In this document: positions 10,946 through 51,773 of the stretch, one piece after another
How the letters are laid out: the number at the start of each line of letters is the position of its first letter
How positions within the stretch are numbered: position 1 is the first letter of the stretch
From: an uncultured Planctomycetota bacterium
GTDB lineage: Bacteria; Planctomycetota; Planctomycetia; Isosphaerales; Isosphaeraceae
DNA: 64,000 nucleotides
Assembly: GCA_963845755.1 (NCBI GenBank)
Contig: CAWJTV010000036.1
Span: 224,001 to 288,000 of the forward strand
Direction: 5' to 3'
The notes under the pieces: model-generated
The model's database searches: none
Told to the model about the DNA's origin: nothing
What the model saw: the letters and a program-made list of their open reading frames with translations, nothing else
Translations under genes and position numbers: made by a program

Positions 10946-10949
10946 GAAT

Positions 10950-11585: not shown

Positions 11586-12422
11586 GCGGCCCTTCGGGGC
11601 GAGGATCGACGCGCCCTCCTTGACACGACCATCCAGACTCGATCGACTCAAGAGCGCGAGTCGGAAGGAAAGCCTGAACCGACTTCTCTCCGAGTTCCGA
11701 TTGAAGTTCGCGACGAGCTTCTCCTTGGTCGAGTTCAAGGCGACAATCATTCAAGAGTGTATCACGATCCATAATCAACTGCGGGTGAAGGGTGCTCGTT
11801 TCACAAGGGTCAGGGATATGCTCATGGAGAAAGACCATCGACAATTCAGCTTAAGAGCACATATATTTAATAATTATATCAATGTCTTTGCTCCGTCTTC
11901 GTTCGATATCACACCGCAAGAGGACGAGGAGTTGGCCGAGCAGGCGAGGTTGCTCCTGGAGAATCAGATTCCCCTGCTATACGAGTGGTTCGTCGCCGAT
12001 AGCGCAGACGCGGTGTTGACGGATAGACTGAAGTGCGACCTGCCCGTGAGGCTCCGATCAAGAAGTCCGTTACGTTTGATACCAACCTTCCAAGTGCCGT
12101 CGGGGGAAGAACAAGACCTGTCGAGTCGAACAGCTCATCAGGGAGGATGGCCAGAGTCTGATCGAGGGGCTCCGACCGTTCTTGGGGGAATCGGAACAGT
12201 TGTCGGGATTCGTAGACGTGTTTGAGCGGGTTATTCGAGATTCCGCCGCTCGAGCTCAGCGTGGACGATTGTCGGCGGGCGGGGGACTGCCTGATCGCTC
12301 TTGAAGGTGCAGACTCTGCCACGCACGCTCTTTCGAGCAATCGACGCGAATGGAGGCCCATCTCACACGCTGTGGGCTTCGAGTTTGTCCATGTTACGTA
12401 TCCCGAGGAGCGGACCCGTTGA
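11582..12422 (+). CDS. PIN-like nuclease domain protein (frameshifted)
   Basis: N-terminal LLDTTIQ, central SLVEFKA and C-terminal AGDCLIALE...ALSSNRREW match the PIN D/E/D/N layout once frames are joined. Confidence 0.55.
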
Positions 12423-12525
12423 AGGTCGTCGGCACATGACCTGGCGCCACGATCCGCGTTTGATGGACCGAATCGGCTGCCAGGATTGGGGCGAATCCGG
12501 GATGCCGGAGTCATCGAGACGCCCG

Positions 12526-15500
12526 CTATCGAGGCCCGCGGAGCGGATCTTCGGGTTTGAGCGACTGTCGCAGTTCGGCGACCCCCCTGTTCTTGAAGTC
12601 GATGCCGAACAGGGTGAGGAGGAGATCCAGTAATGGGGGGAAGTACTCGTCCTCGCGACGGAAGTCGGCGAACACTTTCCCTCTCATTAAAGGAGGTAAC
12701 GATGTCCGTTCGTCGCCTTCCAAGAGCAACGGCAGCACGGTCGCCTTGTGTTGCTGGGTCCCTGTGTATCGGAGGTTGATGAGATCTACTTCCGTCGCGA
12801 CCACCCGCCCGGTCGTCGGATCTTTGTTCTCATATTTCTCGCGGTAGCGAGGTGTCCCGACCGCGATCACGAACCTCTTGGGTATCCTCCAGTAAACTGA
12901 GGAATCGCGCAATGTCCGACCCGATCGACGCATTGTCCCAGCGGTCGAGGACGACCTCGACACCGGCGTTGTGGAGATCGCGTGCCAGCTTCTTCTCGAC
13001 CCATTGCTCGTGTTCCCGCACGCCCCAGGCATAGCTGATGAAGCAAGCGGGGCGATCGTTCCGGGCGAGGGATTTGACCGCCCTACCGCGCCGCCTCATA
13101 CCGGGTCCGCAGGTCGGCAGTGGCACGCTCCTGCTCAACCTCCACGCGGTCGATCCGAGCCGATGTGATGACTTCTCCAACGCCTGCGAGACTGACCTTC
13201 TTTCCGCACTCGCTACAGAACATGTCTGGACGGTGCTCGCGGATGCGTCGGACAACCTCCTCCCGTTTTTGCCGGTAGCCGCATCCTCGCTTACGGCAGA
13301 TGACTGGCGGATACCGAATGATCTTGACCCGACGTCGGGTCAGGAACCGCTCGAACAGCCCCTGAAAGAGAAGCCTTGTATGCGAAACGACATGCTTGGC
13401 GTAGTACAGGACGAACTCAACCTCACCCTCGATTCCCCTGGCTACCTGCCGGAAGCCGCAAACCTCATGCTCGCCGAGCACGTACTGTGCCTGGTCCTGC
13501 CACTGATGGGTTCGCGTGAAGACGTTTGTGTAGCCTAACAGCACAACCAGAGCGGCGTAGGCGTTCTCCACCTCCCCGGACACCTCATACGATACATCTT
13601 CTTCCAGCTCCACCCCGCCATCGATCTGCGGCCGTTTCTGGTTGATCAACTCGGGGAAGATGAGGTACGTCGAGGCCCCTTCCTTCTCCCGGAAGCAGAG
13701 GTTGTGCCCCAGGAAGAGCGTCGTGGTTGCGTCGAGGAGAATCCGGCAATCCCGATCGCTCAACCCTTTCAATTCCTGGAAAGGATAATCGCCCTTCAGG
13801 AGGCGTCCTTCGTCGAGCGAGCCGAGCCCTTTGGGATTGCGGCGTGCTTCCAACACAATGGAAGAGGCGAGGTTGTTCGAGAGCTTAGAAGCGAGCAGAA
13901 TGCTTTGCTCGCCGGTGGACGTGCGGATCACACAGACGTAGCCGTAGTTGGCCAGATGCCCTACGGCCGTCATCATCTCGTCGTCGCTGAATTCCCAGTT
14001 TGTGTCGGTCTCCTCGAGCCGCCGGCGCAGCTCGGGCGGATCGAAGAGCGATTCCGTTCTCGTCGGGTCCTCCTTCGAGCGGAGCACGAAATCCTTGATG
14101 CGCTTGAACGTGTCGGTTGTGACCGTGGGAGGCATGTCCTCCCAGCCGACCAGCTCTTTGGCCCGCTCGACCAGTTCGACCAGCCCGTCGCCGCGCTTGG
14201 CGCTCGGTGCCGACGTAGCCTCCATCAATGCCACGGGTACGGCAATAATCGTCGATCTCCTCCAGGGTCAGGCTCGGGTCACCGACGTCGAGCCGAGCGC
14301 AGACCAGGATTGTGCGGCACGTTGGCGGCCATGGGCCAGCGCCTTGAGCCAGTAGTCGACCCCATGGAGCGGTTCCTGGCGGTTGGCGGCGTTGAACAAG
14401 ACTAGGGCCAAGTTCGCGTCGTCGAGGAACAGAGTATGGATCAGCCGGTAGTCCGGCTGACCGGCAAGGTCCCATAGCACCGCTTCGCAATCAGCCCCGT
14501 CCGATCGTCGATGCTTCCACTCATCCAGCACCCAGAACTGCTGGCCATGCGTCGAGGGATGTTCTTTGAACTTGTCATGTGCCAGCCGCCACCCAAACCC
14601 CGTTTTGCCGACGCCCGAGTCGCCGACCAGCACGATCTTCGCCGTGATGTGGTGTACGGCACGCGCCGAGCAGTGCGGCCAATCAGGGTTTTCGGGTCGT
14701 AGTCCCAGATCTGGATCTTGTTCCCATCTCTCAAGGAACGATCGATAGTCACTATGGTGGGGGACCGCGGGTTGAAAGCCGGGTACCCAAGCCCATTGCC
14801 AGCCCATGGTAGGCCTGTCACGGTTTGCCAGGACTCGCGTAGCCACAGCCGGACCGTCTGGTCGGAAGAGGCCGAGGCGAGAACTCGGCCGTCGGGAGAC
14901 CACGCGACGCTCGTGACGGGGTCGGAGTGCTCCCTCCAGAGTGCAGATCGGCCGACAACTAGGTGCCTGCCACAACCGCACCGTTTTGTCGTCGGACGCC
15001 GATGCGAGGCTGAGTCCGTCAGGCGACCATGACACGCAATTGACATCACCAACGTGGTCCTCCAGGGTCCGGATCGCTCGGCCGCTCGATGCCTCCCACA
15101 GCCGCACCGTGTTGTCTCTGGACGCCGAGGCAACTGTGAGTCCGTCTGGCGACCACGACACGCCGAATACAACCCCAGCGTGGCCCTTGAGGGTTCGGAT
15201 CGCCCGGCCGCTCGATGTCTCCCACAGCCGCACCGTCTTATCTCTGGACGCCGAGGCAATTGTGAGTCCGTCTGGCGACCACGACACTCCAAAGACACTG
15301 TCGGCGTGGCCTTTGAGGGTTCGGATCGCCCGGCCGCTCGATGCCTCCCACAGCCGCACTGTCCGGTCGAAGGACGCTGAGGCGATTGTGAGTCCGTCTG
15401 GCGAGAACGCCACGCAGCAGACGGGTCGGAGTGCCTCTGGAGGGTCCGGATGGCCCGGCCGCTCGATGCCTCCCACAGCCGCACCGTCCGGTCGAATGAG

Positions 15501-28964: not shown

Positions 28965-30399
28965 ATGTCGGCGGTCAACAACGGTCCCGGGAATGGCAAG
29001 GGGAACTATAACGGCTCCGGTCGTGTGGCCAAGCCCGACACGACCGCGCTGGGCGATCGGTTGCCGCCGCAGAATCTCGAGGCCGAGATGAGCGTGCTGG
29101 GCAGCATCCTGCTGGACAATGACGTCCTGCATGAAGTCATCCCGATCCTCGGGGTCGGCGATTTCTACCGCGACGCTCATCAGATCATGTATGAGGCGAT
29201 TCGCGAGCTGTACGACCTGGGCAAGGGCGTCGACGCAGTGACCCTGGCCGATGAGCTGATCCGGCGCGATCAGTTCCAGAAGATCGGCGGGGATGAGACG
29301 CTCCATGAGATCGTGGACTTCGTCCCGCACGCGGCCAACGCCAAGTATTACGCCGGGATCGTCCGGGAGAAATCGATCAGCCGGCAATTGATCGACGGCG
29401 CGACCGAGATCATCCGCGAGGGTTATTCCAACCAGTACACCGCGCAGGACCTGCTGGAATCGGCCGAGCGGAAGATCTATGGAATCGCCGAGGACCAGGT
29501 CCAGGGCGAGACGATCGAGGTGAAGGACCTGGTCATCAAGGCGATGGACGAGATCGCCCGGCGAGCCGATTCGGGCGGGCATGTCATCACGGGGGTGGCC
29601 TCGGGCCTGAATGACCTGGACGACATCACCGGCGGGTTCCAGCCCGGTCAGCTCGTCATCCTCGCCGCCCGTCCCAGCATGGGCAAGACCGCGATGGCGC
29701 TGAATGTCTGCGACCATGCCGGCGTCCACCTCAAGGTCCCCGTGCTCTTCGTCAGCCTGGAGATGGGCCACATGGAGATCGCCTTGCGGCTCCTCGGCGC
29801 CGGCGCGAGTGGACGGCTACAAGCTGCGGACCGGCATGAAGATGCAGCTCGAGATGAATAAGCTGGTGAAGGCTTACAATGAGCTGAGGGCCGCTCAGAT
29901 CTTCATCGATGATACACCCGCCCGCAACATGCTCCAGATCACGGCCTCGTCGCGGCGGCTCAAGCTTCGCAAGGAGCTCGGCCTGATCGTGGTCGATTAC
30001 ATCCAACTGGTCGACTCGGAGGACTCGCGCGACAGCCGGCAGGAACAGATCGCCAAGATCAGCCGGCGGCTCAAGACGCTGGCCCGCGAGCTCGAAGTCC
30101 CCGTCATCGCCCTGTCCCAGTTGAACCGCGCCGTCGAGAGCCGCGAGGACCGCCGCCCTCGCATGGCCGATCTTCGCGAATCCGGCGCGATCGAGCAGGA
30201 TGCAGACATCGTATTACTCCTTCATAGACCGGACTATTACGACGCCAACGACCAGCCGGGGATCGCCGAGCTGATCATCGCCAAGAACCGCAACGGGGCG
30301 ACCGATACCATCAAGCTCACCTTCCTCAAGAACCTGACCCGGTTCGAGAACTCCTCCATGGTGGTCGAGCCGATGGATGAAGGGGGAAGCCCGTTCTGA
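28965..30399 (+). CDS. dnaB: Replicative DNA helicase (frameshift near 29800)
   Basis: LPPQNLEAE, ILAARPSMGKT, VDYIQL, LSQLNR, DLRESGAIEQDAD, IAKNRNG. Confidence 0.97.
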
Positions 30400-30501: not shown

Positions 30502-32204
30502 TCACCGCATCGCCTGGGCCTCGGCGAGCATGGCCTTGGCCTCCTGGCGGGTCCCTTCGGCGGCGGAATCGCCGCGGAGCATCAGTGCGAGCTCGGCGAT
30601 GCGTTCGGACTCGTCGAGGGGCGCGATGGTGGTCCGCGACCGGCCGCGTTCGACGTGTTTGCGGATGGCCCACTGGTGGCGGGCGTAGCTGGCCATCTGG
30701 GGCAGGTGCGTCACGCAAATCACCTGGTGATGGCGCCCCAGCACGGCGAGGTTCTTGCCGAGCGCCGAGCCCAGCCGGCCGCCGACGCCGGTGTCGATCT
30801 CGTCGAAGACCAGCGTGGGGACGCGATCGACGGCGGCCAGCACCGTCTTGACGGCGAGCGTCACTCGGGACAGCTCGCCGCCGGAGGCGATCTTGCGCAG
30901 GGGGCGGGCCTCCTCGCCGGGATTGGCGGAGAAGAGCATCTCGACGCGGTCGCTTCCGGAACCGGGCGGCGCAGACGCGGTGGGGTCGTCGCCCAGCTCG
31001 CGCGGGTCGACGGCAACACTCAGCCGCGCGCCGTCGAGGCCCAGCGGCTTGAGCCGCGCCTGGATGGCCTTGGCGAAGTCCTTGGCGATCTTGCGCCGGG
31101 CGGTGGTGAGCGCGGCGGCGGCCTGCTTCAACGCGGCCCAGGCGGCGGCCAGGGGCGGATCCAGGGCGAGCAGATCGGCGTCGTCGCGGTCGAGCGCGGC
31201 GAGCTGGGCCTCGGTCGCGGCACGGCGGTCGACCAGCTCGTCGGGCGTGCAGCGGAACCGCGCGGCCAGCCGCCGATAGAGGGCCAGCCGGGCCTCGATG
31301 TCCTCGAGCCGCGCCGGGTCGTCGTCACAGCTCTGGCCCAGGTCGCGGAGGCTGAAGGCGACCTCGCGGGTCTCTTCGGCCAGCCGTTCGAGGGCCGAGG
31401 TGGCCTCGGCCAGCTCGGGCACGGCACGCGCGAGGGGGTCCAGCGAGCGCGCGACGCGCTTGAGAAGCCCTTGCGCCGAGCGGTCGGCCTCGTAGAGCAG
31501 CGCATAGCCTTCCGCGGCCGCGGTGCGGAGCTGGTCGGTGTGGGCCAGCCGCTGGGCCTCGCGCGCCAGCTCCTCGGACTCGCCCTTCCGCGGATCGGCG
31601 GCGGCCAGCTCGTCGCGCTCGAATTCCAGCAAGGCCCGTTCGCGCCGCCGCGCCGCGGCCGAGTCGATCAGCTCCTGACGCTTGCGGCGCAGCGTCTCGT
31701 GGGCCTGGCGCGCCGACCGATAGGTCTCGAGCCGGTCGCTCAGCCCGCCGTAGGCGTCCAGCAGCTCTCGCTGCCGGTCCGGGTCCATCAGGGCGCGGCC
31801 CTCGTGCTGGCCGTGGATGTCCACCAGGCGCTCGCCCAGCTTTTGCAGCGTGGCGATCGTCACCGGGAGGGCGTTGACCGTCGCGCCTCCGCGCCCTGCG
31901 CCGAGATCCGACGGGTCACGATCAGCGAGTCCTCATCGAGCACGCCGTCGCCGCCCAGGATCGCCTCGACCTCCGCCCGGAGCCCGGGATCGGCGATCTC
32001 GAAGACCGCGGCCGCGCGTGCCTCGGTCTTGCCCGAGCGGATCAGGTCGGCCGACGCCTTCTCCCCGAGGATCAAGCCCAACGCGGTCAGGAGCAGGCTC
32101 TTCCCCGCGCCGGTCTCGCCCGTCCAGGCACAGTAACCGGCCTCCAGCTCGACATGCACGTCTTCGATCAGCGCCAGGTTCTGCACCGAGAGTTCACGCA
32201 ACAC
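30502..32204 (-). CDS. recN: DNA repair protein RecN (frameshift near 31880)
   Basis: MLRELSVQNLALI, TGETGAGKS, DIHGQHE, ASGGELSR, FDEIDTGVGG, VTHLPQ. Confidence 0.97.
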
Positions 32205-36242: not shown

Positions 36243-37877
36243 TCAATGCTTGCTCTGGGGAACCTCGGGGACCGCGACGGCCGGGCTGGATCGGGCCAAT
36301 TTGGGGACGAAACCGCGATGGACCTTCGGGTCGGTGTAGGTATCGAGGCCCTTGTGGCTGATCTTACCGTAGTAGGTGGCGAAGTCGAAATGCGGCGAGT
36401 TATCCAGATCGTGGCAGCGGGCGCAGAGACCATTCTTGTCCGCCTGTTCGGCGGTCAGTGCCATGAGCTTGCGGAACTCTGGGGTTTCGGGTTCGGAGAC
36501 GTGCTTCGAGCCCGGCCCATGGCAGTTCTCGCACTGGTTGCCGGCCAGGTAGGGCGTCTCCACCTTGGAGTGCCAGCCCGAGTTGTATTCGAACCCGGTC
36601 GTGTGGCAGGTGATGCATTCCGCATCGTAGATCGTGTTCGGCTTGTGGTCCTTTTCCAGGGAGACGAAGGCCTGGGCGTGCTTGGTCGTCGACCACTTGA
36701 TATACGTGTTCGGGTGGCAGGACTTGCAGTTCTCGGCACCGACGAAGGTCGCGCCGGGCGCGCCGTTGACATAGTTGTGCCGGGTGAATTGCTCGACGAC
36801 CTGGACCTGGCGGAGCATGTCGCGGTATTCGTCCTCGATCAGGGCCTTCATGGCCTTCGCCGGGCCGTCAAATTTCTGGTTCAAGGTCACGCGCTGGTAG
36901 CGCAGGCGCTCGGATTCCTTGGGATAAAGCCCGAAGACCCCGACGTACTTCCCCCTCTGGCCGACGTCGATCAGCCAGGTCTTGCCGCCGTTGAGCCGGT
37001 CGGGCTCGGGGGTCAACGGGTCGGCCGTCTCGGCCGTCGCGACGACGATGTCGAAACCGGGATAGGCCGCCGCGAGCCGCCTGGCCAGCGCCGGCGGGCC
37101 CTGGACCATCAGTACCTGGTAGTCGCTCTTGGGCTCGAGGGCGGCCAGCACGTCGGGTAGGACCTCCTCGGGCCTCTTGACGGTCGGCAGCAGCAGTTCC
37201 TGGTCGGGATCGACGAGCTTGCGGAGCGACTCGGGATCGATCACGGCGGTGACGCCGAGCTTCACCGGGCCGGCGGTCACGACGAGGCTGGGCTGGAAGA
37301 TCGTCTCGTATCCGGCGGCCGGCTGCACGTTGGCGACGACGACCTTGGTGGTCCCGCCGAGGTAGTTGTCGAACCGGCTCAGGGCCTCGCCCACGCCGAT
37401 CTTCAGGTCCTCGGCGCCCAGTGCCATCGCGCTGTAGTTCAGCAGCTTCAGGGCCCGGAGGGAATAATCGAACTTGAGCTTCGCTTGCTCGAAGCCCCCG
37501 CGGGCGACGGCCGGGTTCTTGATCAGGCTCCCCAGGTCGATCTGGCAGGTCGGCCACTGGTTCTGCTCGTGCAGCCGCTCGAGTAAATCATAGCGGCGGA
37601 GCAGGCCGCCAACTTGCCCTTCGGTGCAACCGCACGGCTCCAGGTAGCCGAGTTGCTCGCCCGTGACGATCAGGACCGCCGCGGGATTGCCCAGGTTGGC
37701 CAGTGGTTTCTGCGTCGTCGCGCTGCTCCCGACCGGCGAACCGGTCGGTCCGCTCTTCGAGACGGTTGAGGGCGAGGCTGAGGGGCTGGTCGGGCTCGAT
37801 GACGAGCATCCCACATAGGCCAGGACCGCCACGAACAAGATAACACCGGCCCAGGGGCGGAAGTCGATTCGAGTCAT
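36243..37877 (-). CDS. Lipoprotein with metallophosphoesterase-like N-domain and tetraheme c554-like cytochrome domain
   Basis: YVGC lipobox, GYLEPCGC..GGLLRR, four CxxCH motifs (CKSCH, CITCH, CENCH, CARCH). Confidence 0.9.
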   Translation of the reverse strand: MTRIDFRPWAGVILFVAVLAYVGCSSSSPTSPSASPSTVSKSGPTGSPVGSSATTQKPLANLGNPAAVLIVTGEQLGYLEPCGCTEGQVGGLLRRYDLLERLHEQNQWPTCQIDLGSLIKNPAVARGGFEQAKLKFDYSLRALKLLNYSAMALGAEDLKIGVGEALSRFDNYLGGTTKVVVANVQPAAGYETIFQPSLVVTAGPVKLGVTAVIDPESLRKLVDPDQELLLPTVKRPEEVLPDVLAALEPKSDYQVLMVQGPPALARRLAAAYPGFDIVVATAETADPLTPEPDRLNGGKTWLIDVGQRGKYVGVFGLYPKESERLRYQRVTLNQKFDGPAKAMKALIEDEYRDMLRQVQVVEQFTRHNYVNGAPGATFVGAENCKSCHPNTYIKWSTTKHAQAFVSLEKDHKPNTIYDAECITCHTTGFEYNSGWHSKVETPYLAGNQCENCHGPGSKHVSEPETPEFRKLMALTAEQADKNGLCARCHDLDNSPHFDFATYYGKISHKGLDTYTDPKVHRGFVPKLARSSPAVAVPEVPQSKH

Positions 37878-38104
37878 CGTCTTATCTCCTTTGTCGTGGC
37901 GAGTGTACGGTCAACCCGCGATGGGCGGGTTGGAGTCCCGCCTTGAGACGGAGCCACTTCGGAATCGACCCCGCTCACCAGGTTTCCCCATCTTCACACA
38001 TTCACTCGCCACGCGCCGCTCACGACATCCTGAGGTTTTAGCCTCCTGGCAGATCGGCGAACAGATCAGATCGATCGGAAGGGCCAAGGCCGGCGTGGCT
38101 GGGC

Positions 38105-39247
38105 TCAGCCGGCGTTCGCTTGCGAGATGTAGATCGTCACCGGGATCTTCAGCTCGCCGACCTTGGGGTGGTCGGTCTTCAGGATGATCGGATCGTCCAG
38201 GAGGCCCGGGGGAGAGTCCGGGGGCACTGTGACCCTCATGCGATACCGTCCCGTCACGCCCGGCCTGTCATCCGGCGCGATGGCCACCTGGAGCTTCCCC
38301 GGCACATGGGCCACCTGGAATTGCGTCGCCTTCCCGCCGCGGACGATCAGCGTGAGGTCGCTCGAAGCCCCCTTCCGGCTGGAAACGCTGGGCATCCCGA
38401 GTTTGTCGGGGAAGACGCTGATCGGCCCGATCACCTTCCCGGCGACCGTCACTTTCAGCTCAGGTTGCTTCGGATGATCGGTCTGAAAGACCACTTCCTC
38501 CCGGAACTCACCCAGGGGCATGCCCGGCTTGACCTCCACAACGACATGGTAACCCGACGGGACTCGTCGCGTCTTGAGCTCTTCGGCCGTCATGGGCTTG
38601 ATGTCGGCGACAATCCGGTCCGGGTTCGAGCTCGTCACCTTCGTCACCTTCAGCCCAGCCCGGTCCGGCGAGAGGATCGTGAGCTCCGACCGATTGGTCT
38701 CTTCGTTGGAGATCTTGGGGAATGCCACCGTGTCCGAGGGCTCGACCTCCACCGGAAAGAGGACCTTTCCTCGGATCGTCAGGCTGAGGATGGGAGTGTC
38801 CAGGTCGTTGGTCCCCAGCGTCGCCGTCTGGTGGAATTTGACCCAATTCTTGGTTTCCCAGGTCACCTCGATCGATGTCGAGCCGCCCGGGGCGACCTTC
38901 ACCCGCTTCTTCTCCCCTTTCCCTTTGCCCTTGGTCTTATCGTTCTCGAGCGTGGCGACGGTACACGAACATGAGGTCTCCTCGAGCCAGATGTCGAGCT
39001 CGCCCTCGCCGACGTTCTGGATCTCCCACGAATGGACGCCATCGGACGTCTTGGGCATCGTGCCGAAGTCGAAGACCGGCTGGCCGACGAGCTTCACCTT
39101 CGGTTGGCCTCCTTCGTCTTCATGGAATGACACGGGCGGGGGCGCCTCCGTGTCCGTGTCCAACCCATACCAGAAGGCGAAAGTCCCGGCCACGGTCAGG
39201 ACCACCACCGCACACGCCAGGACGATCCAGCGAACCATCTCGGACAT
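38105..39247 (-). CDS. DUF1573 domain protein
   Basis: N-terminal TM, FDFGTM, IQNVGEG, SCSCT, TND, TDHP repeats. Confidence 0.85.
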   Translation of the reverse strand: MSEMVRWIVLACAVVVLTVAGTFAFWYGLDTDTEAPPPVSFHEDEGGQPKVKLVGQPVFDFGTMPKTSDGVHSWEIQNVGEGELDIWLEETSCSCTVATLENDKTKGKGKGEKKRVKVAPGGSTSIEVTWETKNWVKFHQTATLGTNDLDTPILSLTIRGKVLFPVEVEPSDTVAFPKISNEETNRSELTILSPDRAGLKVTKVTSSNPDRIVADIKPMTAEELKTRRVPSGYHVVVEVKPGMPLGEFREEVVFQTDHPKQPELKVTVAGKVIGPISVFPDKLGMPSVSSRKGASSDLTLIVRGGKATQFQVAHVPGKLQVAIAPDDRPGVTGRYRMRVTVPPDSPPGLLDDPIILKTDHPKVGELKIPVTIYISQANAG

Positions 39248-39399
39248 CCTCCCGTACGCAATACGCGGTGAAGTGAAGTACAGACGATCTCCCGCATCCC
39301 GGTCTTCGGGGGAAAGGCATCGTCGTCAGAAGGCTGAAGGCTGAATCAATCCGATCCTACTCAGCCTTCAGCCGTCATCCTTCAGCCTTTCAAGAGCCT

Positions 39400-40505
39400 T
39401 CAAGAAGGGCCCGATCGGGAGACCAGGATATCGACCGGGATCTTCAGCTCACCGACGAGGGGATGATCGGTTTTCAAGACGATCTCGCCCTCGATCGGCC
39501 CCGCGGCGGTGCCGGGGGGCACCTTGACCGCCAAGCGATAGCGGCCCTTCATGCCCGGCCGATCGTCCGGCAAGACGTCCACGTCCACGTGCTCCGGCTT
39601 GGACACGACCTGGAAATGCGTCTCCTTGCCGCCACGGACCATCAGGGTCAGGTCACGGGAAGTCGCCTTCCCGGCGGGTGACATCGCGCATCCGCAACCC
39701 CGGTGGGACGATGCTGATGGGTCCGATCACTTTCCCCCCGACGGAGACCCTCACCTCCGGCCGCTTGGGATGGTCGGTCTGGACGACCACCTCATCGAGG
39801 AATTGGCCCTGGGGCATGCCCGGCTTGACCTCGACGAGGATGCTAAAACCCTCCTCGACTTTGAGAGACTTGGCTTCATCGGGCGTCAACGGCCTGACCG
39901 TGGTGACGATCCGGTCCGGCTTCGAAGTCGTCACCTTCGTCACCTTCAGCTTGGGCCGGTCCAGCGAGTAAACCGCGAACATCCGCCCGTTCGTCTCTTC
40001 GTTGGAGATCGTCGGGAACTGGATCATCTCCGGGGGGTAGACGACCACCGGTGGGTGGACCTTCCCCTTGATCGTCAGATGGAAGGTGGGGTGGAGCGGG
40101 TCGTTGGTCCCGAATTCCGCCCCCTGCGAATATTCGTCATGGAACTCCTTGGTGTTCCATTCCAGGTCGATCGTGGTCGACTTGCCGGGCTCGACCACCG
40201 CCTTCTGGTTACCCTCGAGCTTGGCGATCGTGCAGGAGCATGTCGGCTTCCCGATCATCCACAACTCCAGGGTCGCCTCGCCGGTGTTCTTGATCCGCCA
40301 GGTGTGCATCCCCTTGTCATGCTGCGACATCTTGTCGAAATCGTAGATCGGATCCTGGTCGATCTCCACCTTGGGCTGGGGCCCCCGGCTTTCATTGACC
40401 GGGGTCTTGGGCGCAGGCCTCAGGATCCGGCAGGTACAGGGGCACTAAGGTCGCCGCCGCGGTCAGGAAGACCACGGCCACCGCCAAGATCACCCACCGT
40501 AACAT
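39400..40505 (-). CDS. DUF1573 domain protein, tandem paralogue (frameshifted)
   Basis: MLRWVILAV TM, IKNTGEA, TCSCT, TDHP; clearly similar to 38105-39247. Confidence 0.8.
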
Positions 40506-40911: not shown

Positions 40912-41178
40912 ATGAACAAGCTCACGATCGAGGTCTGGGACGCGACGGGCAATAAGAAGCAGTTAGTTGAGCTGCCGTCGGACGCCCCGGTGAACCGGGT
41001 GATCGCCGTCCTCGTCGAGAAGATGAACCTGCCGCGATACAGCCCGGACGGGCAGTTGATGAGTTACAAGTTCCACCACAAGGCCAGCGGGCGGCAGTTG
41101 CTCGACGACCAGACCCTGGCCTCGGCCGACATCCACAGCGGCGACGTGCTGCGGCTCCAGCCGGAGATCACCGCCGGG
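40912..41178 (+). CDS. Ubiquitin-like beta-grasp protein (YukD/EsaB-like), read in frame with downstream E1
   Basis: 89-aa domain VELPSDAPV...LVEKMNL...LLDDQTLASADIHSGDVLRLQPEITAG ending in Gly. Confidence 0.85.
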
Positions 41179-41253
41179 CGCGAGCCGGCGACGGCCGGGT
41201 GTCACCCGTCGGCCCCGAGTGCCCACTCTGAGGAAACGGGGAGGGGCGCGACC

Positions 41254-42447
41254 TTGAGCGACGTGATCCGGATCGAGGACGCGGAGACCGCGGCGGGGCG
41301 GGAGGACCGGTTCGCTCGGTTCCGGCTGATCAGTTGGTGGGACCAGGAGCGGCTGGCCGGTGCGCGCGTCCTGGTCATCGGCGCGGGGGCGCTGGGCAAC
41401 GAGATCCTCAAGGACCTGGCCCTGCTGGGCGTGGGCCGGGTCTTCGTGGCCGATCGCGATCGCGTGGAGAACTCGAACCTGTCGCGCTCGATCCTTTTCC
41501 GGGAGCGCGACTGCGGCCGGCCCAAGGCCGAGGTCGCCGCCGAGCGGGCGGCCGAGATCTATGCCGGGATCCGCGTCCGGCCGTTTTCCGGCAACGTGGT
41601 CTACGACCTGGGGCTGGGGATCTATCGATGGGCCGACGTGATCCTCGGCGGCCTGGACAACCGCGAGGCCCGGGTCGCGATCAACCTGGCGGCGGCGTGC
41701 GCCGGCAAGGTCTGGATCGACGGGGCGATCGAACGGCTCGACGGCGTCGCACGGGTCTTCGACCCGGCCACCGGGCCCTGCTATGAGTGCACCATGGGCG
41801 AGAACGACTGGAAAATGCTCGAGGCCCGGCGCAGTTGTGCCCTGCTCTCCCGCGGCGAGATGGAGCAGGGCAAAGTGCCGACGACCCCCACGACTGCCTC
41901 GATCGTTGCCGGGGTGCAGGTCCAGGAGGCGGTGAAGTATCTCCACGGCCTGGATGTCATCGCCGGACAGGGCTTCGTCTTCGACGGCAGCCATCACCAG
42001 AGCTACCTCGTGAGCTACACTCGCAAGGAGGATTGCCCGGCGCACGAAGCCGATGAGCCGGTCGAGGTCCTCACCGCGCGGGCCGACGCGATCCGTGTCG
42101 GCGACCTTCTCGAGCGCGTTCGCTCCGACCTGGGCCCCGAGGCGGTGCTCGAGACCGGCCGGGACCTGCTCGCCTCGCTCCGCTGCGAAGACTGCGGCGA
42201 GGGCGAGCCGATCTTCGCGTCGCTGGGCAAGGTCACCGAGGCCCAGGGGCGGTGCCCGCGCTGCGGTCGCCCCCGCACGCCCGCGATGTTCCACACCATC
42301 GACGGTCGCCACCAGGACCTCCTCGACAGGACCCTCGCCGAGATCGGGATCCCGCCGTGGGACGTTCTCGGCGGCCGCGCGGGGATGTTGCAGCGGTTCT
42401 ACGAGTTCGGCGGCGATCGCGGCGATGTCCTCGGTCCACTGAACTGA
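41254..42447 (+). CDS. ThiF/MoeB/E1-like adenylating enzyme with Zn-binding C-terminus
   Basis: VIGAGALG, DRDRVENSNLSR, GLDNREAR, PCYEC, RRSC, CEDC...CPRC; own SD GGGGAGG and TTG at 41254. Confidence 0.9.
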   Translation: MSDVIRIEDAETAAGREDRFARFRLISWWDQERLAGARVLVIGAGALGNEILKDLALLGVGRVFVADRDRVENSNLSRSILFRERDCGRPKAEVAAERAAEIYAGIRVRPFSGNVVYDLGLGIYRWADVILGGLDNREARVAINLAAACAGKVWIDGAIERLDGVARVFDPATGPCYECTMGENDWKMLEARRSCALLSRGEMEQGKVPTTPTTASIVAGVQVQEAVKYLHGLDVIAGQGFVFDGSHHQSYLVSYTRKEDCPAHEADEPVEVLTARADAIRVGDLLERVRSDLGPEAVLETGRDLLASLRCEDCGEGEPIFASLGKVTEAQGRCPRCGRPRTPAMFHTIDGRHQDLLDRTLAEIGIPPWDVLGGRAGMLQRFYEFGGDRGDVLGPLN

Positions 42448-42662
42448 GCTGAGAGAATGTGGATGAATTGGATAGAAGTTTTCAAATCCGAGATTTGATG
42501 AACATCATGCTCGGTACGGGGACGACCGGCATTTCATTTTGAATCGAGATCTTCGCGGGCTCCGAGAGTGAGCGACGTGGGGGAAAGCGACTCGAGAAGG
42601 CGACGCGGTCAGGGCAGTTTACGTACTGGAAACTGAAAACCGGACACTGAAAACTGGACAAC

Positions 42663-43778
42663 ATGGACGAGCTCGATATCCGGCTATTGAAGCGTGAGGA
42701 GCTGCCGCAGGAGGTCTTCCCCGGCGGGCGGAGCGAGCCGTTCCGCGTGTTCTTCACGCCCGAGGTCCACGCCGCGCTCTGGAAGCATGCCTGCGAGGAT
42801 ACCTCGGTCGAGATCTGCGGGGTGCTGGTCGGGAGCTGGCATCGCGACGAGGTCGGGCCATTCGTCAAGATCGTCGACTCGATCCGCGGCGAGGGGGCCA
42901 AGACCCAGTTTGCCGAGGTGACGTTCACCCACCAGACCTGGGCGAAGATCAACAGCGAGATGGATACGAAATTCGCCGCGCTCAAGATCGTGGGCTGGTA
43001 CCACACCCACCCGGACTTCGGGATCTTCCTCTCGGATCGCGACCGGTTCATCCAGGAAAACTTCTTCTCCGGGCCGGGCCAGATCGCCCATGTGATCGAT
43101 CCGATCCGCAAGATCGAGGGGGTCTTCGTCTGGCAGAAGAACCAGCCGAGCCTCACCGAACACTTCTGGGTCGGCGACCGCATCGTGACCGGCCTGCCCG
43201 CCGGCGCGGAAGGTTCGGGCGAATCGGCCGGCGATCGTCGCCGAGGCGGGCCGACGGGCGGAGGGACAGGGACCGCACGAGCGCCGGGGTCCGCCGCGCA
43301 AGGCCGCCCCGACGACCCGCTCCCGCCCATGGGGCGGCTCCTGATTTATGGTGGTGTCTTCCTCGTCGGCTACCTGCTGGCTACGCTGTATTCGGGGTGG
43401 GAGCGCCAGCGATTCGTCGAGAGCATGCTGGCGAGCAACGGCGTCGCGTCTCTCCTCCGCCTGGGCCTTTCCGATCAGCTCGATCGATTGCAGCGCGACC
43501 TGGTGGGGGTCGGCGGACCGCTCGATGCCGCGCAGGCCAAGGCCCAGCAGGCGGATTCGGCATTCGGAGAGATTCGCGACCAGTTGAGGGGCGCCTCACG
43601 GCGGATCGAGGACATCAAGGTCCGGTATGGAAATACCGCGACCGAGGACGAGTACCTCCGCCGATTCCTGCTCGAGAAGTATGCCGAGACCGCGCGGGGC
43701 CGGGAGTCGTCGGCCCCGCCGGTCGCCAAGGATCCGCCGCCGTCGCCGGCTGCACCCACCGAGGCCAAGAAGCCATGA
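42663..43778 (+). CDS. JAB/MPN (JAMM) metalloprotease with TM helix and coiled coil
   Basis: EICGVLVG and WYHTHPDFGIFLSDRD (HxH-x7-S-x2-D); TM LLIYGGVFLVGYLLATLY. Confidence 0.92.
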   Translation: MDELDIRLLKREELPQEVFPGGRSEPFRVFFTPEVHAALWKHACEDTSVEICGVLVGSWHRDEVGPFVKIVDSIRGEGAKTQFAEVTFTHQTWAKINSEMDTKFAALKIVGWYHTHPDFGIFLSDRDRFIQENFFSGPGQIAHVIDPIRKIEGVFVWQKNQPSLTEHFWVGDRIVTGLPAGAEGSGESAGDRRRGGPTGGGTGTARAPGSAAQGRPDDPLPPMGRLLIYGGVFLVGYLLATLYSGWERQRFVESMLASNGVASLLRLGLSDQLDRLQRDLVGVGGPLDAAQAKAQQADSAFGEIRDQLRGASRRIEDIKVRYGNTATEDEYLRRFLLEKYAETARGRESSAPPVAKDPPPSPAAPTEAKKP

Positions 43779-43950
43779 CCACGATCCCCCGTCGAGAGAT
43801 CGAGAGCCTGTGGAAGAATCGATTCAAGATCGCAAATTCGAGGTAGAAATAAATGTAATTTCTTCTGATATAGCAGATTACATTTATTGAATCTTGAATC
43901 TCGAATGTTCCATTCGATCCCTTCGCGGCTTCCCAGAGGAGACCCGGCCC

Positions 43951-45021
43951 ATGTCCGCGCCCATGTCACAGGAGCCGCTCCGACTGACCGAGGAGGACCT
44001 GTTCGCCCCCAAGGTGGACGCGTTCCTGGACGAGCAGTCCATGCTGAGCCGGGCGCTGCCCGAGATCGAAACGCAACCGTGGATCCTCCGCGTGGTCTAC
44101 TCGAGCTACTTCTACCTCAGCCTGGCCAGCGGGCTGGGTGCGTTCGTGGGGTGGATGATCTTCGAGCCGTTCATCAGCGACCGGGAGATCGGCGAGAACT
44201 TGATCGGACTCCTGCTCTTTCCGACGGTCGCGGGCTTCGTGGGGCTGTTCCTGGGCGCGGCGGAGGGGATCATGTGCCGCAACCTGCCGCGGGCCGCGAT
44301 CAGTGCCTTGGTCGGACTGGGAATCGGCTTCGTGGGCGGCTTGATCGTGATCATCCCCGCCGGCATCATCTTCGCGATCATGAAAGGGATCATGTTCCGA
44401 TTCTGGACGAACCCCCAGAAAGGTGAGATGCCGACGGGCATCGCCCTTCTGATCTTCATGATGGGCCGGGGCGCGGCCTGGAGCCTGGCGGCGATCCCCG
44501 CCGGGATCGGCCAGGGGATCGCGCTACGTGAGTCGAAAGTGATCCTCAACGGCCTGCTCGGCGCCGTGCTCGGCGGCCTGTTGGGCGGCCTGGTGTTCGA
44601 CCCGATCTCCATCATCATCCCCCCGACCGATGGCGAGGCCTGGCTCAGTCGCGCCATCGGACTGACCCTGATCGGGCTCATGGTCGGCCTGTTCGTCGGC
44701 ATCGTCGAGCAATGGACCAAGTCGGCCTGGCTCCTGATGCGGGCCGGCCCGCTGGCCGGCAAGCAGTTCGTCATCTTCCGCAACCCGACCGTGCTGGGCA
44801 GCTCGCCCAAGGCCGAGGTCTACCTGTTCAAGGACGAGGCGATCGAACCGCGCCACGCCCTGATCCACGACCGCGGCGGCCGCTTCGAAATCGAGGACCT
44901 CAAGACGGCCGACGGGACCTACGTCAACGGCATCCCCGTCCAGCGGCAGATCCTCAAGTCCGGCGATCGGATCGTCCTCGGCAAGACCGTACTGGAATTC
45001 GCCCTTCGGGATAGTAAGTAG
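43951..45021 (+). CDS. Multi-pass membrane protein with C-terminal FHA domain
   Basis: About 6 Gly-rich TM helices, then LGSSP...RHALI...DLKTADGTYVNG...LKSGDRIVLG. Confidence 0.85.
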   Translation: MSAPMSQEPLRLTEEDLFAPKVDAFLDEQSMLSRALPEIETQPWILRVVYSSYFYLSLASGLGAFVGWMIFEPFISDREIGENLIGLLLFPTVAGFVGLFLGAAEGIMCRNLPRAAISALVGLGIGFVGGLIVIIPAGIIFAIMKGIMFRFWTNPQKGEMPTGIALLIFMMGRGAAWSLAAIPAGIGQGIALRESKVILNGLLGAVLGGLLGGLVFDPISIIIPPTDGEAWLSRAIGLTLIGLMVGLFVGIVEQWTKSAWLLMRAGPLAGKQFVIFRNPTVLGSSPKAEVYLFKDEAIEPRHALIHDRGGRFEIEDLKTADGTYVNGIPVQRQILKSGDRIVLGKTVLEFALRDSK

Positions 45022-45025
45022 AGTT

Positions 45026-45107
45026 TTCCGTGTTCCGTGTTCCGTGTTCCGTGTTCCGTGTTCCGTCTTCCGTGTCCGGTGTTCATTGACTGACCACTGA
45101 CCACTGA
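45026..45107. repeat. Heptamer tandem repeats (TTCCGTG about 7 copies, then TGACCAC 2 copies)
   Basis: Directly visible in the intergenic sequence. Confidence 0.9.
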
Positions 45108-45122
45108 AAAAAGGACCACCCC

Positions 45123-45689
45123 ATGCCGATCTCGTTCTCGTGTTCGAAATGCGGCAAGAAGCTCAAGGCGCCGGACAGTGCGGCGGGCAAATCCTCGAAG
45201 TGCCCGCAATGCGGATCCTCGGTGACGTGTCCGGAACCGGTCTACGACGCAGAACTCGTGGAACCGCCCGGCGGCGTGGACCCCTACGGCGATCTCGACT
45301 CGGACAAGCCCTATGCCGTGGCCACTCCCGCCTCGTCCGCGGCTCCAGCGTCGGAGACCGACGGCCGTCGCCCCTGTCCGATGTGCGGCGAGATGATCGT
45401 GGCCACGGCCGCCAAGTGCCGCTTCTGCGGCGAAGTCTTCGACGCGACGCTCAAGAAGGCGAAATCCAAGAAGAAGAAGAAATATAGTTCGGATGAGGCG
45501 GACCTATCGACGGGGGACATCGTCGTTGGCCTGCTCTGCTCCGTGATCGGCTGTATCGCCGGGCTCGTCTGGATGATCCAGGGGAAGCCCAAAGGGCTAA
45601 AGATGGTGGGTTTGTCGATCGTCGCCGATATCGTGAAGTCGGTGATCTGGGCGATCATCCAATCGAATCAACACGGAGGCGCGGGGTAA
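45123..45689 (+). CDS. Double Zn-ribbon membrane protein
   Basis: CSKC..CPQC and CPMC..CRFC, two C-terminal TM helices. Confidence 0.85.
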   Translation: MPISFSCSKCGKKLKAPDSAAGKSSKCPQCGSSVTCPEPVYDAELVEPPGGVDPYGDLDSDKPYAVATPASSAAPASETDGRRPCPMCGEMIVATAAKCRFCGEVFDATLKKAKSKKKKKYSSDEADLSTGDIVVGLLCSVIGCIAGLVWMIQGKPKGLKMVGLSIVADIVKSVIWAIIQSNQHGGAG

Positions 45690-45833: not shown

Positions 45834-46670
45834 ATGATCATTGGACTGGCGTCACCCTGTGTTGCCTCATCACTCGATGCGGGTCTGGACAAGATCAAGA
45901 CGTTCCTGTCCGAAGCGTCCTCCCAGGGCGCGGCGATCGTGTGTTTCCCGGAAGCCTATCTCCCCGGCTTGCGGGGAGTGGGTATTGACGTGTTACCCTT
46001 CGGTCAATCGGAGACACGCGCGGGTACTCGAGGTTGTGGCGCAGTCGGCGCGAGCGTATTCGGTCGCCGCGATCCTCGGGACGGAACGGCTCACGGGTGC
46101 GGGTCGGCAGATTGCCGCCTATGTCATCGACGCCCAGGGCCGGATTCAGGGATACCAAACCAAGAACCAACTGGACCCATCCGAAGATCCGTTCTATGTG
46201 CCGGGAAACACCCGGCAACTCTTTGAAATCGACGGGTTGAAGTTCGGCGTGGCGATCTGTCATGAGGGCTGGCGCTATCCCGAGACGGTGCGCTGGGCGG
46301 CGGCGCGGGGCGCCAGATCGTCTTTCATCCGCAGCACACGGGGAGCGATCAGGAAGGCGTCTGTCCCACGCAGTGGGGCGCGGCCGGCGGACCCTACTAC
46401 GAGAAGGCCATGATGTGTCGCGGCCTGGAAAACACGATCTACTTCGCCAGCGTCAATTATGCGTTGCGCTTCCAGGAATCGGCGACAAGTCTTATCGACC
46501 CGTCGGGCCAGTGTCAGGCGTACTTACCCTATGGGCAGGAAGGCGTCCTGGTGCAGGCCATCAACGTCGAGGAAGCAACCGGTTTGCTCGCCAAGCGGTA
46601 CGCACCCGAGCGTTATCAAACCTCCGAGGAAACGGCCCAGAAGCCCATGGCGGCGATGCAGAGGGAATGA
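45834..46670 (+). CDS. Carbon-nitrogen hydrolase (nitrilase family; frameshifted)
   Basis: Catalytic triad contexts FPEAYL, QTKNQL and AICHEG; ENTIYFASVN. Confidence 0.88.
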
Positions 46671-46748: not shown

Positions 46749-46841
46749 GATTCCGAATTCCGGATTCCGGATTCCGAATTCCGGATTCCGGATTCCCGAA
46801 TCCTTCTTTATCCGGAATCCGGAATCGGGAATCCGGAATCC
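46749..46841. repeat. Inverted heptamer array (GATTCCG)n...(CGGAATC)n between convergent genes
   Basis: Forms a long imperfect hairpin; possibly a bidirectional terminator. Confidence 0.85.
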
Positions 46842-49322: not shown

Positions 49323-50050
49323 ATGAAGCTCCCCGGAACGATCACACGCATCATTCGCGACCTGGAGAGCACCGAGCAATTGCGACGCGATGCCGCCGTG
49401 CGAGAACTCTGGGAACGGTTCTTCGCCGACTTGACGGCCTATGCTCGAAAACGCTTGAAGGCGATGAATGCATCGCGAGGTCCGGCGGACGAGGAGGATG
49501 CCGCCTCGCGAGCCTTCATGAAGGTCTGCCGCGGAATCGAGCCGCGGTCAGCTCAAACTGGCCAACCGAGTGGACCTGACGAAGGTCCTGCGGTCGGCCA
49601 CCGCGCGAGAGGTGTTCACGCTGCTCAGCCGGTCAAAGGGATCGGGTGGGCGGCCCATCGACGACATCGCCCTGGGCCAGGTCGTCGACCCGGCCCTTCC
49701 GCCCGACCTCCTCCTCCTGGCCTTCGACGCCTGCCAGCGTCTGCTCGACCTGCTCGAGACCGACGATGTCCGACACGTCGCCATCTGGAAGCTGGCCGGT
49801 CACACCAACGAGGCGATCGCGGTCAAGCTCGACTGCTCGGCAGCCACGGTCGAGCGCACCTTGTCCCACATCCGAGAGACCTGGAGGCGGTCATGGGGCG
49901 ACGCCGTGCCCCGCGGGCCGGCGAAGCCCGGACCTCGACGCGGCTCGAGCGCGCGCGGCGAATCCCATCGCGTCCCCGCTTCCGGGCGTCGATGACATGG
50001 ACGCCGATGCTGCGGCCAGGCTCCTTCGCGACCTCGCCGGGCTGACGTGA
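49323..50050 (+). CDS. ECF-type sigma factor (frameshifted)
   Basis: ELWERFFADL...ADEEDAA; WKLAGHTNEAIAVKLDCSAATVERTL HTH. Confidence 0.8.
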
Positions 50051-50206
50051 TCGCGTGGCCAATCTCGCCTGTGGACCGACTCACCTCTTTCCTCATGATC
50101 CGCATCATGCGAGGCTAGCATCAGCCGCCAGCGGTGCAGGCCGGCGAGCGTCCGCATCGCGCGAGCGGTTCGTGCCCGAATGGGCGTCCAGAAAGCGAGG
50201 CGGATC

Positions 50207-51773
50207 ATGAGGTTGATGTCGCGGGCAGGCTGGCTTGGGGTTGTCGTGGGGCTCGCTGGACTCGTCCCGCGGGCCGGTGCCGCGGAGGGACCCGAGCCGA
50301 TCATCTACGCGATCCGATTCCCGGCGGCCGGCCAGCATATCGCCGAGGTCGAGGCCACGGTCCCGACTCAAGGGCGCCCGGAGATCGCCCTCATGATGGC
50401 GGTCTGGTCGCCGGGATTCTATCGCCTCGAGGACTACGCCCAGAAGATCCAGGGCCTCTCGGCACGGGCCACGAACGGGGCGGCGCTGGGGGTCGAACAT
50501 CCCCAGAAGAACCGCTGGACCATCACGAACACGGGTGGCGGTCCGAAGGTGGTCGTGACGTATCGGCTCACTTGCGATCGCCGGTCCGTCACCACGAACT
50601 GGGTCGGCGAGGACCTCGTCGTCTTGAACGGGGCGGCAACTTGCGTCACGCTGGTCGAGCCGGTCCGCCGTCCTCATGAAGTCCGGCTCGAGTTGCCGGC
50701 TCGTTGCAAGCGTTCGGCGACGGCGATGGATCCGGCCCCCGACGGCCTGCCGAACCACTATCGCGCCGAGGACTATGACACGCTGGTCGATTCGCCGATC
50801 GTCGCCGGAGACCTGTCGATCCACGAGTTCTCGGTCGATGGCAGTCAGCACATCCTCGCGGATGCCGGCGAGGTCGGCCAATGGGACGGCGAGCTCGCGG
50901 CGCGCAATCTGGAGAAGATGGTCGGCGAGGCGCGTCGCTTCTGGGGTTTCTTGCCGTTCCGGCGATACGTCTTCCTCAACGTGTTCCGCCCCGGCGGCGG
51001 CGGGCTGGAGCACAAGAATTCCACGCTGTTGACCGCGAGTCCCCGAGGCGGGAGGGAGCCGGGCTCCGTGCGCTGGCTCTCCTTCATCAGCCACGAGTAT
51101 TTTCATGCGTTCAACGTCAAGCGACTGCGGCCGATCGAGCTGGGACCGTTCGACTACGAGCACCCGCCGTTCAACCAAGAGCCTCTGGATCGCCGAGGGC
51201 CTCACCACCTATTTCGGCGACCTGATCATCAGCCGCGCCGGGCTCGCCAGGCCGAACGACCTCCTGGGCATGCTGTCCTCGCACATCGGGCAACTCCAGA
51301 ACTCGAAAGGACGGCTCGTCCAGACGCTCGAGCAGGCGTCCCTGGACGTCTGGGCCTCCGGGACTTCCGGAGTGGGACGGGACCCCGCCACCAAGCTCAG
51401 CTACTACGTCAAGGGGCCCGTCGTCGGCTTCCTGCTCGACGCCCGGATCCGTCGCGCGACCGGCGGCAAGAAGAGCCTGGATGATGTGATGAGGCACGCC
51501 TACAATCGCTATTCGGGCGACCGTGGTTTCACTCCGGAGCAGTTCCGCGCCGTAGCCGAGGAAGTTGCTGGTGTCGACCTCAAGGAGTGGTATCACAAGG
51601 CGATCGCCTCGACCGAGGAGCTGGATTACCAGGAGGCTCTCGACTGGTTCGGCCTGCGGTTCGCCCCCTCGGACGATCCGTCCAAGGGCTGGAAGCTCGA
51701 GATCCTCGCGGAGGCCACGGAGACGCAGAAAGCACATCTTCGGGCCTGGGCCGAGGCCGCTGGCGGATCTTAG
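50207..51773 (+). CDS. M61 family metallopeptidase (frameshift near 51172)
   Basis: WSPGFY, LVDSP, GGGLEH, HEYFHAFNVKRLRP, LWIAEGLT, SYYVKG. Confidence 0.92.

Follow-up and report, generated by a model that had tools for sequence, protein, structure and literature searches.

The locus described here raises the question of whether a bacterium runs a complete ubiquitin-like conjugation cascade at its membrane. The stretch analysed, hereafter the window, comprises 64 000 nucleotides of an uncultured member of the Isosphaeraceae (Planctomycetota; assembly GCA_963845755.1, contig CAWJTV010000036.1, positions 224 001–288 000), and between 40912 and 45689 it encodes a ubiquitin-like protein (Ubl), an E1, a JAB metallopeptidase, an FHA protein and a Zn-ribbon membrane protein. 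The initial annotation had proposed for these genes a protein-conjugation pathway acting at the membrane, possibly linked to Ser/Thr signalling. Open reading frames (ORFs) and Pfam matches confirmed five coding units, all co-oriented on the plus strand, and bore out their family assignments; that the window itself contains neither an E2 nor an E3 had been missed. An E2 and two RING genes were found on a different contig, C11, of the same genome (G000). We regard it as probable (about 0.7) that the window and C11 genes constitute one membrane-tethered Ubl–E1–E2–RING–JAB operon, likely conjugating Gly89 of the Ubl to lysines of inner-membrane or membrane-recruited proteins; that the Ubl is covalently conjugated at all is, on the sequence evidence, likely. 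The features concerned are as follows (TM, transmembrane segment).

40912–41178, plus strand: Ubl (Pfam YukD, 9e-11, above cut-off; beta-grasp), mature form predicted to end at Gly89 (LQPEITAG)
41179–41253, plus strand: Ubl C-terminal tail or spacer, in frame with E1 in this assembly
41229–41231, plus strand: out-of-frame TGA
41240–41244, plus strand: GGAGG
41254–42447, plus strand: E1 with TTG start, adenylation domain, Zn site and candidate catalytic Cys195 in RRSC (codon 41836–41838); ThiF, 3e-51
42049–42444, plus strand: E1 C-terminal domain, a probable ubiquitin-fold (E2-binding) domain with Zn-ribbon insert
42663–43778, plus strand: JAB/JAMM metallopeptidase (JAB, 1e-11), JAMM residues intact, one TM (226–242), helical C-terminal part
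43951–45021, plus strand: FHA protein with six predicted TMs (FHA, 2e-13), ATG at 43951 behind GAGGAG, FHA domain C-terminal
45123–45689, plus strand: double Zn-ribbon membrane protein (Pfam Zn_Ribbon_1, 6e-6), two predicted TMs
C11:25843–29420: half with E2 and two RINGs, in the order Zn-ribbon membrane protein, RING-Zn ribbon-TM, RING-trypsin, E2
C11:26701 and C11:27376: the two RINGs, both Prok-RING_1 matches over the cut-off
C11:28686–29420: E2 (UQ_con, 5e-11) with HPN, Cys95 and WSP loop

An operon in two halves

Related loci (L-numbers, n = 80) were fetched from GTDB with E1 as query; their titles are mostly Planctomycetota and Acidobacteriota, and the nearest E1 relatives, Isosphaerales among them, are 80–89% identical. 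Panels of 121 family genomes and 301 phylum genomes were used as well, which overlap with the 80 loci and consist of kin, so that counts are not independent trials. The source genome is 88% complete and the comparison genome G006 99% complete. Among the 80 loci E1 was present in 80, JAB in 72, Ubl in 71, the TM-FHA protein in 53, E2 in 52 and RING in 45, and this recurrence indicates that the association of the genes is not due to chance.

The full order, found in L002, L010 and G006, is Ubl, E1, JAB-TM, TM-FHA, Zn-ribbon membrane proteins, RING-Zn ribbon-TM, RING-DUF4190-trypsin and E2; the entire operon is contiguous in G006, where it occupies about 3,662,490–3,670,400 of contig C1, and additionally ends with DUF2752 in L002. 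In the window it is interrupted downstream of the Zn-ribbon gene at 45123–45689. After the C11 E2, as read from the sequence, lies a glucose-6-phosphate dehydrogenase-like gene, as in L002. Within the stretches fetched, 36 of the 53 FHA-type loci held an E2 and 40 a RING, and 9 of the 17 without E2 have less than 6.2 kb after the E1 start. The window-type Ubl (63–100% identity) and the C11-type E2 (56–100%) occurred in the same 26 of the 121 family genomes, and in none was the C11-type E2 seen without the window-type Ubl. These two genes lay within 10 kb on one strand in 11 of the 26, at 12–32 kb on one contig in six (three of them inverted) and on different contigs in nine, the source genome included; furthermore, the E2 was present at 91–94% identity in all five close relatives tested. 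Such co-occurrence across split genomes indicates that the split is shared among kin and that both halves are kept. By gene order and co-occurrence, the C11 genes are the back half of the window operon. With a cognate E2 and two Prok-RINGs operonic in relatives and present in this genome, the membrane-acting protein conjugation of the initial annotation was strengthened, whereas its Ser/Thr link was not (see below). A further way of splitting the operon was observed in L099 (G071), where a window-type Ubl (92%; 7915–8181) occurs by itself; the 20 kb fetched contained neither an E1 nor a JAB match.

The genome contains two E2 genes, that of C11 and that of a paralogous operon on contig C34:

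L081:7630–12620 (G000, C34, about 593.6–598.6 kb), minus strand: Ubl with a short tail after Gly, E2, E1, JAB-TM-coiled coil and M48 peptidase

The C34-type Ubl and E2 were present in 105 of the 121 family genomes and are thus close to core. A membrane protein with a third RING is encoded at C34:621874, about 23 kb from this operon.

Catalytic sites, the variable Ubl tail and the Ubl–E1 junction

The catalytic sites were found to be conserved in relatives. In E1, GxGxxG was present in 80 of 80 and Cys195 in 77 of 80 relatives, and the profile scored higher with UBA3 (149 bits) and UBA2 (134) than with ThiF (118) and MoeB (114). Residues 266–397 of E1, its last 132, aligned with the Ubl profile in hhalign (E 1.3e-4, score 28.7, 37 columns, probability 51–53%), the controls reaching at most 16.7 in 40 column shuffles and 15.0 when reversed, and Atlas searches returned E2_bind (0.79) and UAE_UbL (0.76), which serve as leads only. 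This suggests that the E1 C-terminus is a ubiquitin-fold domain with a Zn-ribbon insert and not a rhodanese domain, which neither a Pfam scan nor a direct domain search found in E1. The E2 Cys was conserved in 52 of 52 and HPN in 51 of 52 sequences, and the best matches of the C11-type E2 were eukaryotic E2s, UBE2B being the closest solved relative; the WSP loop is marked as a conserved E2 loop in PMC5654768. The core RING ligands were retained in 44–45 of 45 sequences and one His in 39, the catalytic triad of the RING-DUF4190-trypsin protein, which has three predicted TMs, was intact in 12 of 12, and the JAMM residues E50/H114/H116/S124/D127 were intact in 71 of 71 relatives. JAB matched CsRpn11 best in the PDB (6FJV, 1e-11), followed by eukaryotic Rpn11. 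The nearest solved relatives, CsUb, CsRpn11, UBA3/UBA2 and UBE2B, are all conjugation proteins.

These results bear on whether the Ubl might instead be a ThiS/MoaD-type sulfur carrier, with a ThiF/MoeB-like enzyme as its activator and JAB as its maturation protease. E1 does match ThiF/MoeB models, JAB-trimmed sulfur carriers exist (PMC1779556), and in one of 26 loci a cysteine desulfurase gene lies about 2 kb upstream (L012:4134–5321). However, all E1 scores against the NCBIfam ThiF/MoeB models stayed far under the cut-off (best 132 versus 275 bits), so that E1 missed the equivalog level; no rhodanese domain was found, as noted, and sulfur transfer has no use for an E2 or RINGs. As the initial annotation had stated, thiamine, Moco and cysteine-biosynthesis families were absent among the window proteins scanned (14 in one scan, 39 in another). 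ThiS/MoaD did not appear among the listed PDB matches of the Ubl profile, and the ThiS family gave no match to this Ubl. Apart from the operon, the genome contains three ThiS/MoaD carrier genes and two further ThiF-type genes, one carrier standing beside a ThiF-type gene of its own on C39; judged from this gene content, sulfur transfer is handled by genes other than those of the operon. A sulfur carrier is therefore scarcely credible here, and conjugation remains the reading that we follow.

The Ubl itself carries a characteristic C-terminus. Ala88-Gly89 was invariant in 69 of 69 aligned relatives, and beyond the Gly, 20 of 71 relatives had no residue, 30 had 1–5, 12 had 6–20, seven had 21–70 and two had more than 70; these tails, present in 51 of 71, share no common sequence. 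An invariant Gly followed by a freely variable tail is the pattern of a JAB-trimmed precursor, and the Ubl looks like one, as with CsUb-pre, which CsRpn11 cleaves C-terminal to its Gly-Gly (PMC6043591), and BubAB, which the Bub JAB cleaves C-terminal to Gly229 (PMC11601596). The best single-domain PDB matches of the Ubl family profile were likewise to CsUb (6FJ7, 2MQJ and 6FNN), although weak (E 0.001–0.002). In L007, L009, L097:7491–8195 (G006) and L098 (G039) the Ubl forms an in-frame fusion with a Zn-ribbon/DUF4190-type membrane protein, which in L008 and L100 is a separate gene; the fusion is a possible membrane-anchored precursor.

The initial annotation had the Ubl protein end at PEITAG, which is incorrect for this assembly: a stop is absent there and the frame crosses 25 codons into E1, giving a 511-aa ORF (40912–42447). 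A genuine polyprotein cut by JAB, like BubAB, could be read from this open frame. The Zn-ribbon/DUF4190 fusions, which look real, indicate that read-through is tolerated, and at about one frameshift per 3–4 kb an error falling within these 50 nt would be rare. On the other side, the Ubl frame reads into E1 in none of 71 relatives, and E1 keeps its own start, TTG at 41254 (conserved in seven relatives aligned), behind the ribosome-binding site GGAGG. The spacer is 75 nt long here versus 73 nt in L013 and L026; in all three the TGA stands 22 nt ahead of the E1 start. In L013 and L026 it follows 48 nt of spacer and is in frame; in the window 50 nt precede it, and it is out of frame by one base. 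Moreover, frameshifts were detected in 4 of 20 test genes of this assembly (21 rows surveyed, one artefact row left out), dnaB is split at 28965–30396, and the RING-trypsin gene of C11 is frameshifted as well. The assembly carries many single-base frameshifts; split frames were seen in the window at 28965–30396, 30505–32204, 4799–6432, 39400–40369, 45841–46670, 49323–49995 and 50180–51773, affecting dnaB, a recN-like gene and genes for two ECF sigma factors, a DUF1573 protein, a nitrilase-family protein and an M61 peptidase. In small shares of two public sequencing runs no listed piece spanned 41179–41253, and no RNA run was listed. The open frame is probably a one-base assembly slip; a real, tolerated indel, and with it a genuine fusion, has about half that chance. 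Given JAB cleavage, the mature tag would be identical whether slip or indel applies. The split operon and the frameshift-prone assembly make this copy a poor test object.

Mechanism, membrane proteins and role

On the conjugation reading, JAB would trim the variable tail and expose Gly89, which E1, its motifs being intact, would adenylate and bind as a thioester at Cys195; the probable E1 ubiquitin-fold domain would recruit the C11 E2, and the Ubl would pass to its Cys95. The two membrane RINGs may then deliver E2~Ubl to substrates picked by the Zn-ribbon membrane proteins, the membrane-bound JAB would take the tag off again, and the FHA protein would act as scaffold or tag reader and not as a phospho-sensor.

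Several points weigh against this scheme. The Ubl terminus is Ala-Gly and not Gly-Gly. The position of the E1 Cys after the first CxxC is common to MoeB and ThiF, so that the Cys alone does not discriminate. When the E1 C-terminal domain was searched directly against the PDB and Pfam, Zn ribbons were the only matches, and its ubiquitin-fold alignment spans just the 37 columns at 51–53% probability given above. Two family genomes (G007 and G070) have a partial Ubl match and no C11-type E2, and that the cascade uses the E2 of C11 and not that of C34 is read from gene order and co-occurrence. The frameshift in the C11 RING-trypsin gene also belongs here, as does the fact that neither a proteasome nor a Pup ligase was found in the 88%-complete genome. 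The relatives are not independent samples, and the membrane topology, like all TM counts, derives from hydropathy only. A possible proteasome/Pup link was discarded; the single Proteasome-family match is HslV beside HslU, and no Pup ligase was found.

The FHA domain was closest to GarA/OdhI (3e-14). In phosphothreonine-binding FHA domains of this type, the phosphothreonine is contacted by the Arg of G-R, the Ser of S-x-x-H and the Asn of N-G-T. Relative to GarA/OdhI, the present domain has G-S for G-R, E-P-R-H for S-R-R-H and A-D-G-T for L-N-G-T; in relatives (the alignment leaves out the frameshifted L022) G-S was found in 52 of 53, Glu or Leu at the Ser position in 45 of 53, and Asp most commonly at the Asn position. 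As aligned, the domain is without the usual phosphothreonine ligands and fails to qualify as a GarA/OdhI-type binder. With a degenerate FHA domain, Ser, Glu and Asp standing for Arg, Ser and Asn, and a kinase near the Ubl in just 2 of 26 loci with scanned flanks, the suggested Ser/Thr-signalling link is unsupported. The two kinase genes, L024:5287–6864 and L027:4709–7654, lie just upstream of the Ubl. In an Atlas search, the TM region of the FHA protein matched clusters that carry FHA and no other named family. The TM-FHA protein has paralogues, without a visible Ubl operon, at L083:13186–19934 (G000, C11, about 1.387–1.394 Mb) and L084:4687–10262 (C31); as read from the sequence, one lies among vWA-like membrane genes and one behind two Hsp70-like genes.

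Near its N-terminus the FHA protein carries a motif, consensus I-R-I-T-x-x-D-L, found by regular expression in 39 of 51 sequences. A matrix trained on this motif, its threshold set so that flanks gave 12 of 367, matched 29 of 37 TM-FHA proteins (the training set), 6 of 8 RING-trypsin proteins (after the RING), 6 of 38 E1s and 7 of 17 E2s, here mostly within the folded domain; it gave no match in 27 JABs and 40 Ubls, and the source genome's own RING-trypsin copy stayed under the threshold. The motif may be a putative Ubl-binding strand. That its Thr forms a pT-x-x-D site for the FHA domain was rejected, the column holding Thr 23, Ser 9 and Asp 4 times (n = 36), a mix that we take to be a helix N-cap pattern.

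A Ubl beside an FHA membrane protein also recalls YukD and YukB, and the Ubl might act as an assembly factor for a membrane complex without itself being conjugated. Pfam places the Ubl in YukD, YukD binds the FHA domains of YukB (PMC12637312) and is reported to be unconjugated (PMC1779556), and the FHA domain is non-canonical here too. Yet the invariant terminal Gly with its disposable tail and the intact sites of E1, E2, RING and JAB argue against such a factor, YukD is not among 46 PDB matches of the Ubl profile, and a non-covalent Ubl–FHA contact would be compatible with conjugation. We consider an assembly factor very unlikely. By analogy, the YukD–YukB contact would provide a precedent for an FHA domain used other than in phospho-binding (PMC12637312).

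Regarding the purpose of conjugation, the RING-trypsin protein points to envelope surveillance; if the RING lies inside, the intact trypsin-like protease, joined to it via three predicted TMs, would face the periplasm, and the C34 operon, ending at an M48 membrane protease, points in the same direction. Overall, the odds of this role are about even. If conjugation is granted, envelope surveillance or regulation is slightly favoured, defence has a smaller chance and other roles little. A more elaborate and rather speculative proposal is that of a counterpart to membrane quality control of the endoplasmic reticulum type, in which the RING-periplasmic trypsin protein would couple outside damage to inside tagging, the tag would in some genomes be kept as a membrane-anchored precursor, the Zn-ribbon/DUF4190 fusion, until the membrane JAB releases it, and the tag would be read without a proteasome by the phosphate-blind FHA domain and by the short strand-plus-capped-helix motif common to the FHA protein and the RING-protease.

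The same chemistry could serve an anti-phage purpose as in Bil, the Zn-ribbon proteins acting as sensors and the Ubl being put on phage or host membrane proteins. The distribution is patchy (26 of 121 family genomes; TM-FHA gene in 19 of 301 phylum genomes with six candidates scored per genome) and extends over several phyla. The copy number of the Zn-ribbon array between the FHA and first RING genes varies from none in L017 to two in L002 and three in L030. Moreover, the bacterial conjugation systems tested are defence systems, and a preprint expects the same for untested ones (PMC10557695). Nevertheless, only 10 of 113 flank proteins from 26 loci matched PADLOC at 1e-8 or better, a count given without background rate, and nearly all matches were of a general kind (kinases, ATPases, a cysteine desulfurase and a methyltransferase), no defence system being recognisable. 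The neighbours are stable among kin, two genera share a Ubl of 100% identity, both halves were retained after the operon split, the paralogous system is present in 105 of 121 family genomes, and no Ubl relatives were found in viral contigs. We therefore consider defence rather unlikely. The pointer of the initial annotation to Bil and CBASS stands as an analogy only, PADLOC matches being weak and limited to the adenylation or JAB core, and a defence-island context not being found.

Relation to known systems and surrounding DNA

The operon falls closest to the complete prokaryotic 'tri-ligase' Ubl systems of JAB, E1, E2 and RING described by Kaur et al. (2020), citing Burroughs et al. (2011), in which JAB is proposed to release the Ubl from a longer precursor (PMC7159879). 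The same five components are present here, namely the Ubl Gly, E1 motifs and Cys, E2 Cys (in trans in this genome), JAMM site and RINGs that pass the cut-off of the Prok-RING_1 family (PF14446) of the Aravind group. In contrast to the eLife example, the Ubl and E2 are free-standing, and an EAD1, FtsH or vWA-MoxR module is absent. Further differences are that most parts are membrane-anchored and that the operon is split. Burroughs, Iyer and Aravind (2011) reportedly mention membrane links, and the Burroughs 2011/2012 papers or their supplements may already cover the partners with FHA, trypsin and TM parts.

The cascade of Caldiarchaeum subterraneum (CsUb/E1/E2/RING/CsRpn11), reconstituted in vitro (PMC5654768, PMC6043591), is similar in its tailed precursor, in giving the best PDB matches of Ubl and JAB, in its single-chain E1, which carries a Zn site, a Cys and a terminal Ubl domain (the last only probable here), and in the HPN and WSP of its E2. 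As described there, that cascade is archaeal, soluble, Gly-Gly-terminated and proteasome-linked, whereas the present one is membrane-anchored and Ala-Gly-terminated, with no proteasome found. Bil (BilABCD) likewise comprises Ubl, E1, E2 and a JAB peptidase; according to PMC11601596 it is without E3, while RINGs are present here and E1 has one ThiF domain, and the BilD model matched weakly (2e-7). Bub (6E/DUF6527) shares the JAB-matured precursor, and E1/E2/JAB chemistry is common to Bub and Cap2/Cap3; however, Bub is described as forming Tyr/Ser oxyesters with E1 and E2 lacking a catalytic Cys and with a DUF6527 protease (PMC11601596), whereas both Cys are conserved here. The operon proteins scanned gave no DUF6527 match, and no CD-NTase appeared in the proteins scanned. 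Cap2 of type II CBASS is an E1–E2 fusion acting on a CD-NTase, while the E2 here is a separate gene and PADLOC E1–E2 models match the adenylation core only. YukD/YukB of type VIIb secretion shares the YukD-family Ubl beside an FHA membrane protein and is without a ligase cascade; FtsK ATPase, WXG100 and pseudokinase were absent among the operon proteins read or scanned.

RING-containing bacterial operons are described as rare and uncharacterised in the Chambers preprint of 2023 (PMC10557695), and an experimental test of a bacterial RING-containing cascade was not found in the literature searched, which covered few subscription journals. Years ago the Aravind group predicted this class of system, which is apparently untested in bacteria; full E1–E2–RING cascades have so far been reconstituted from an archaeon, and E3-less Bil, Cap2 and Bub from bacteria. 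What is new here is the link to C11 by gene order and co-occurrence (26 of 26), the precursor pattern including membrane-anchored fusions, the likely junction artefact and the degenerate FHA domain. Should the conjugation reading be true, bacteria would run a full eukaryote-style cascade that is membrane-located and apparently proteasome-free, and the targets for a test are now sharper: the predicted cleavage site, the cysteines, the cognate E2 and an FHA domain not expected to bind phosphothreonine.

In the DNA around the operon, a promoter and terminator scan gave counts at chance level (1 versus 0.6 and 3 versus 3.0). The space between the FHA and Zn-ribbon genes contains the following element, which is probably incidental:

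45026–45084, no strand assigned: 7-bp tandem repeat, 8.4 copies

A related 7-bp repeat is intergenic at 46749–46841. Upstream of the Ubl, 36243–40450 forms a divergent block of two DUF1573/Ig-like membrane genes and a multi-haem cytochrome c gene, and a block of this type also precedes the Ubl in L001, L003 and L013. The region 10001–14300 is low in GC (52–60% versus about 65%), has ORFs without Pfam match at 1e-4 and was possibly acquired. Finally, four of the related E1 loci, L061, L062, L074 and L076, come from records titled as archaeon (Methanoperedens), Actinomycetota, Anaerolineales and Rhodospirillales.

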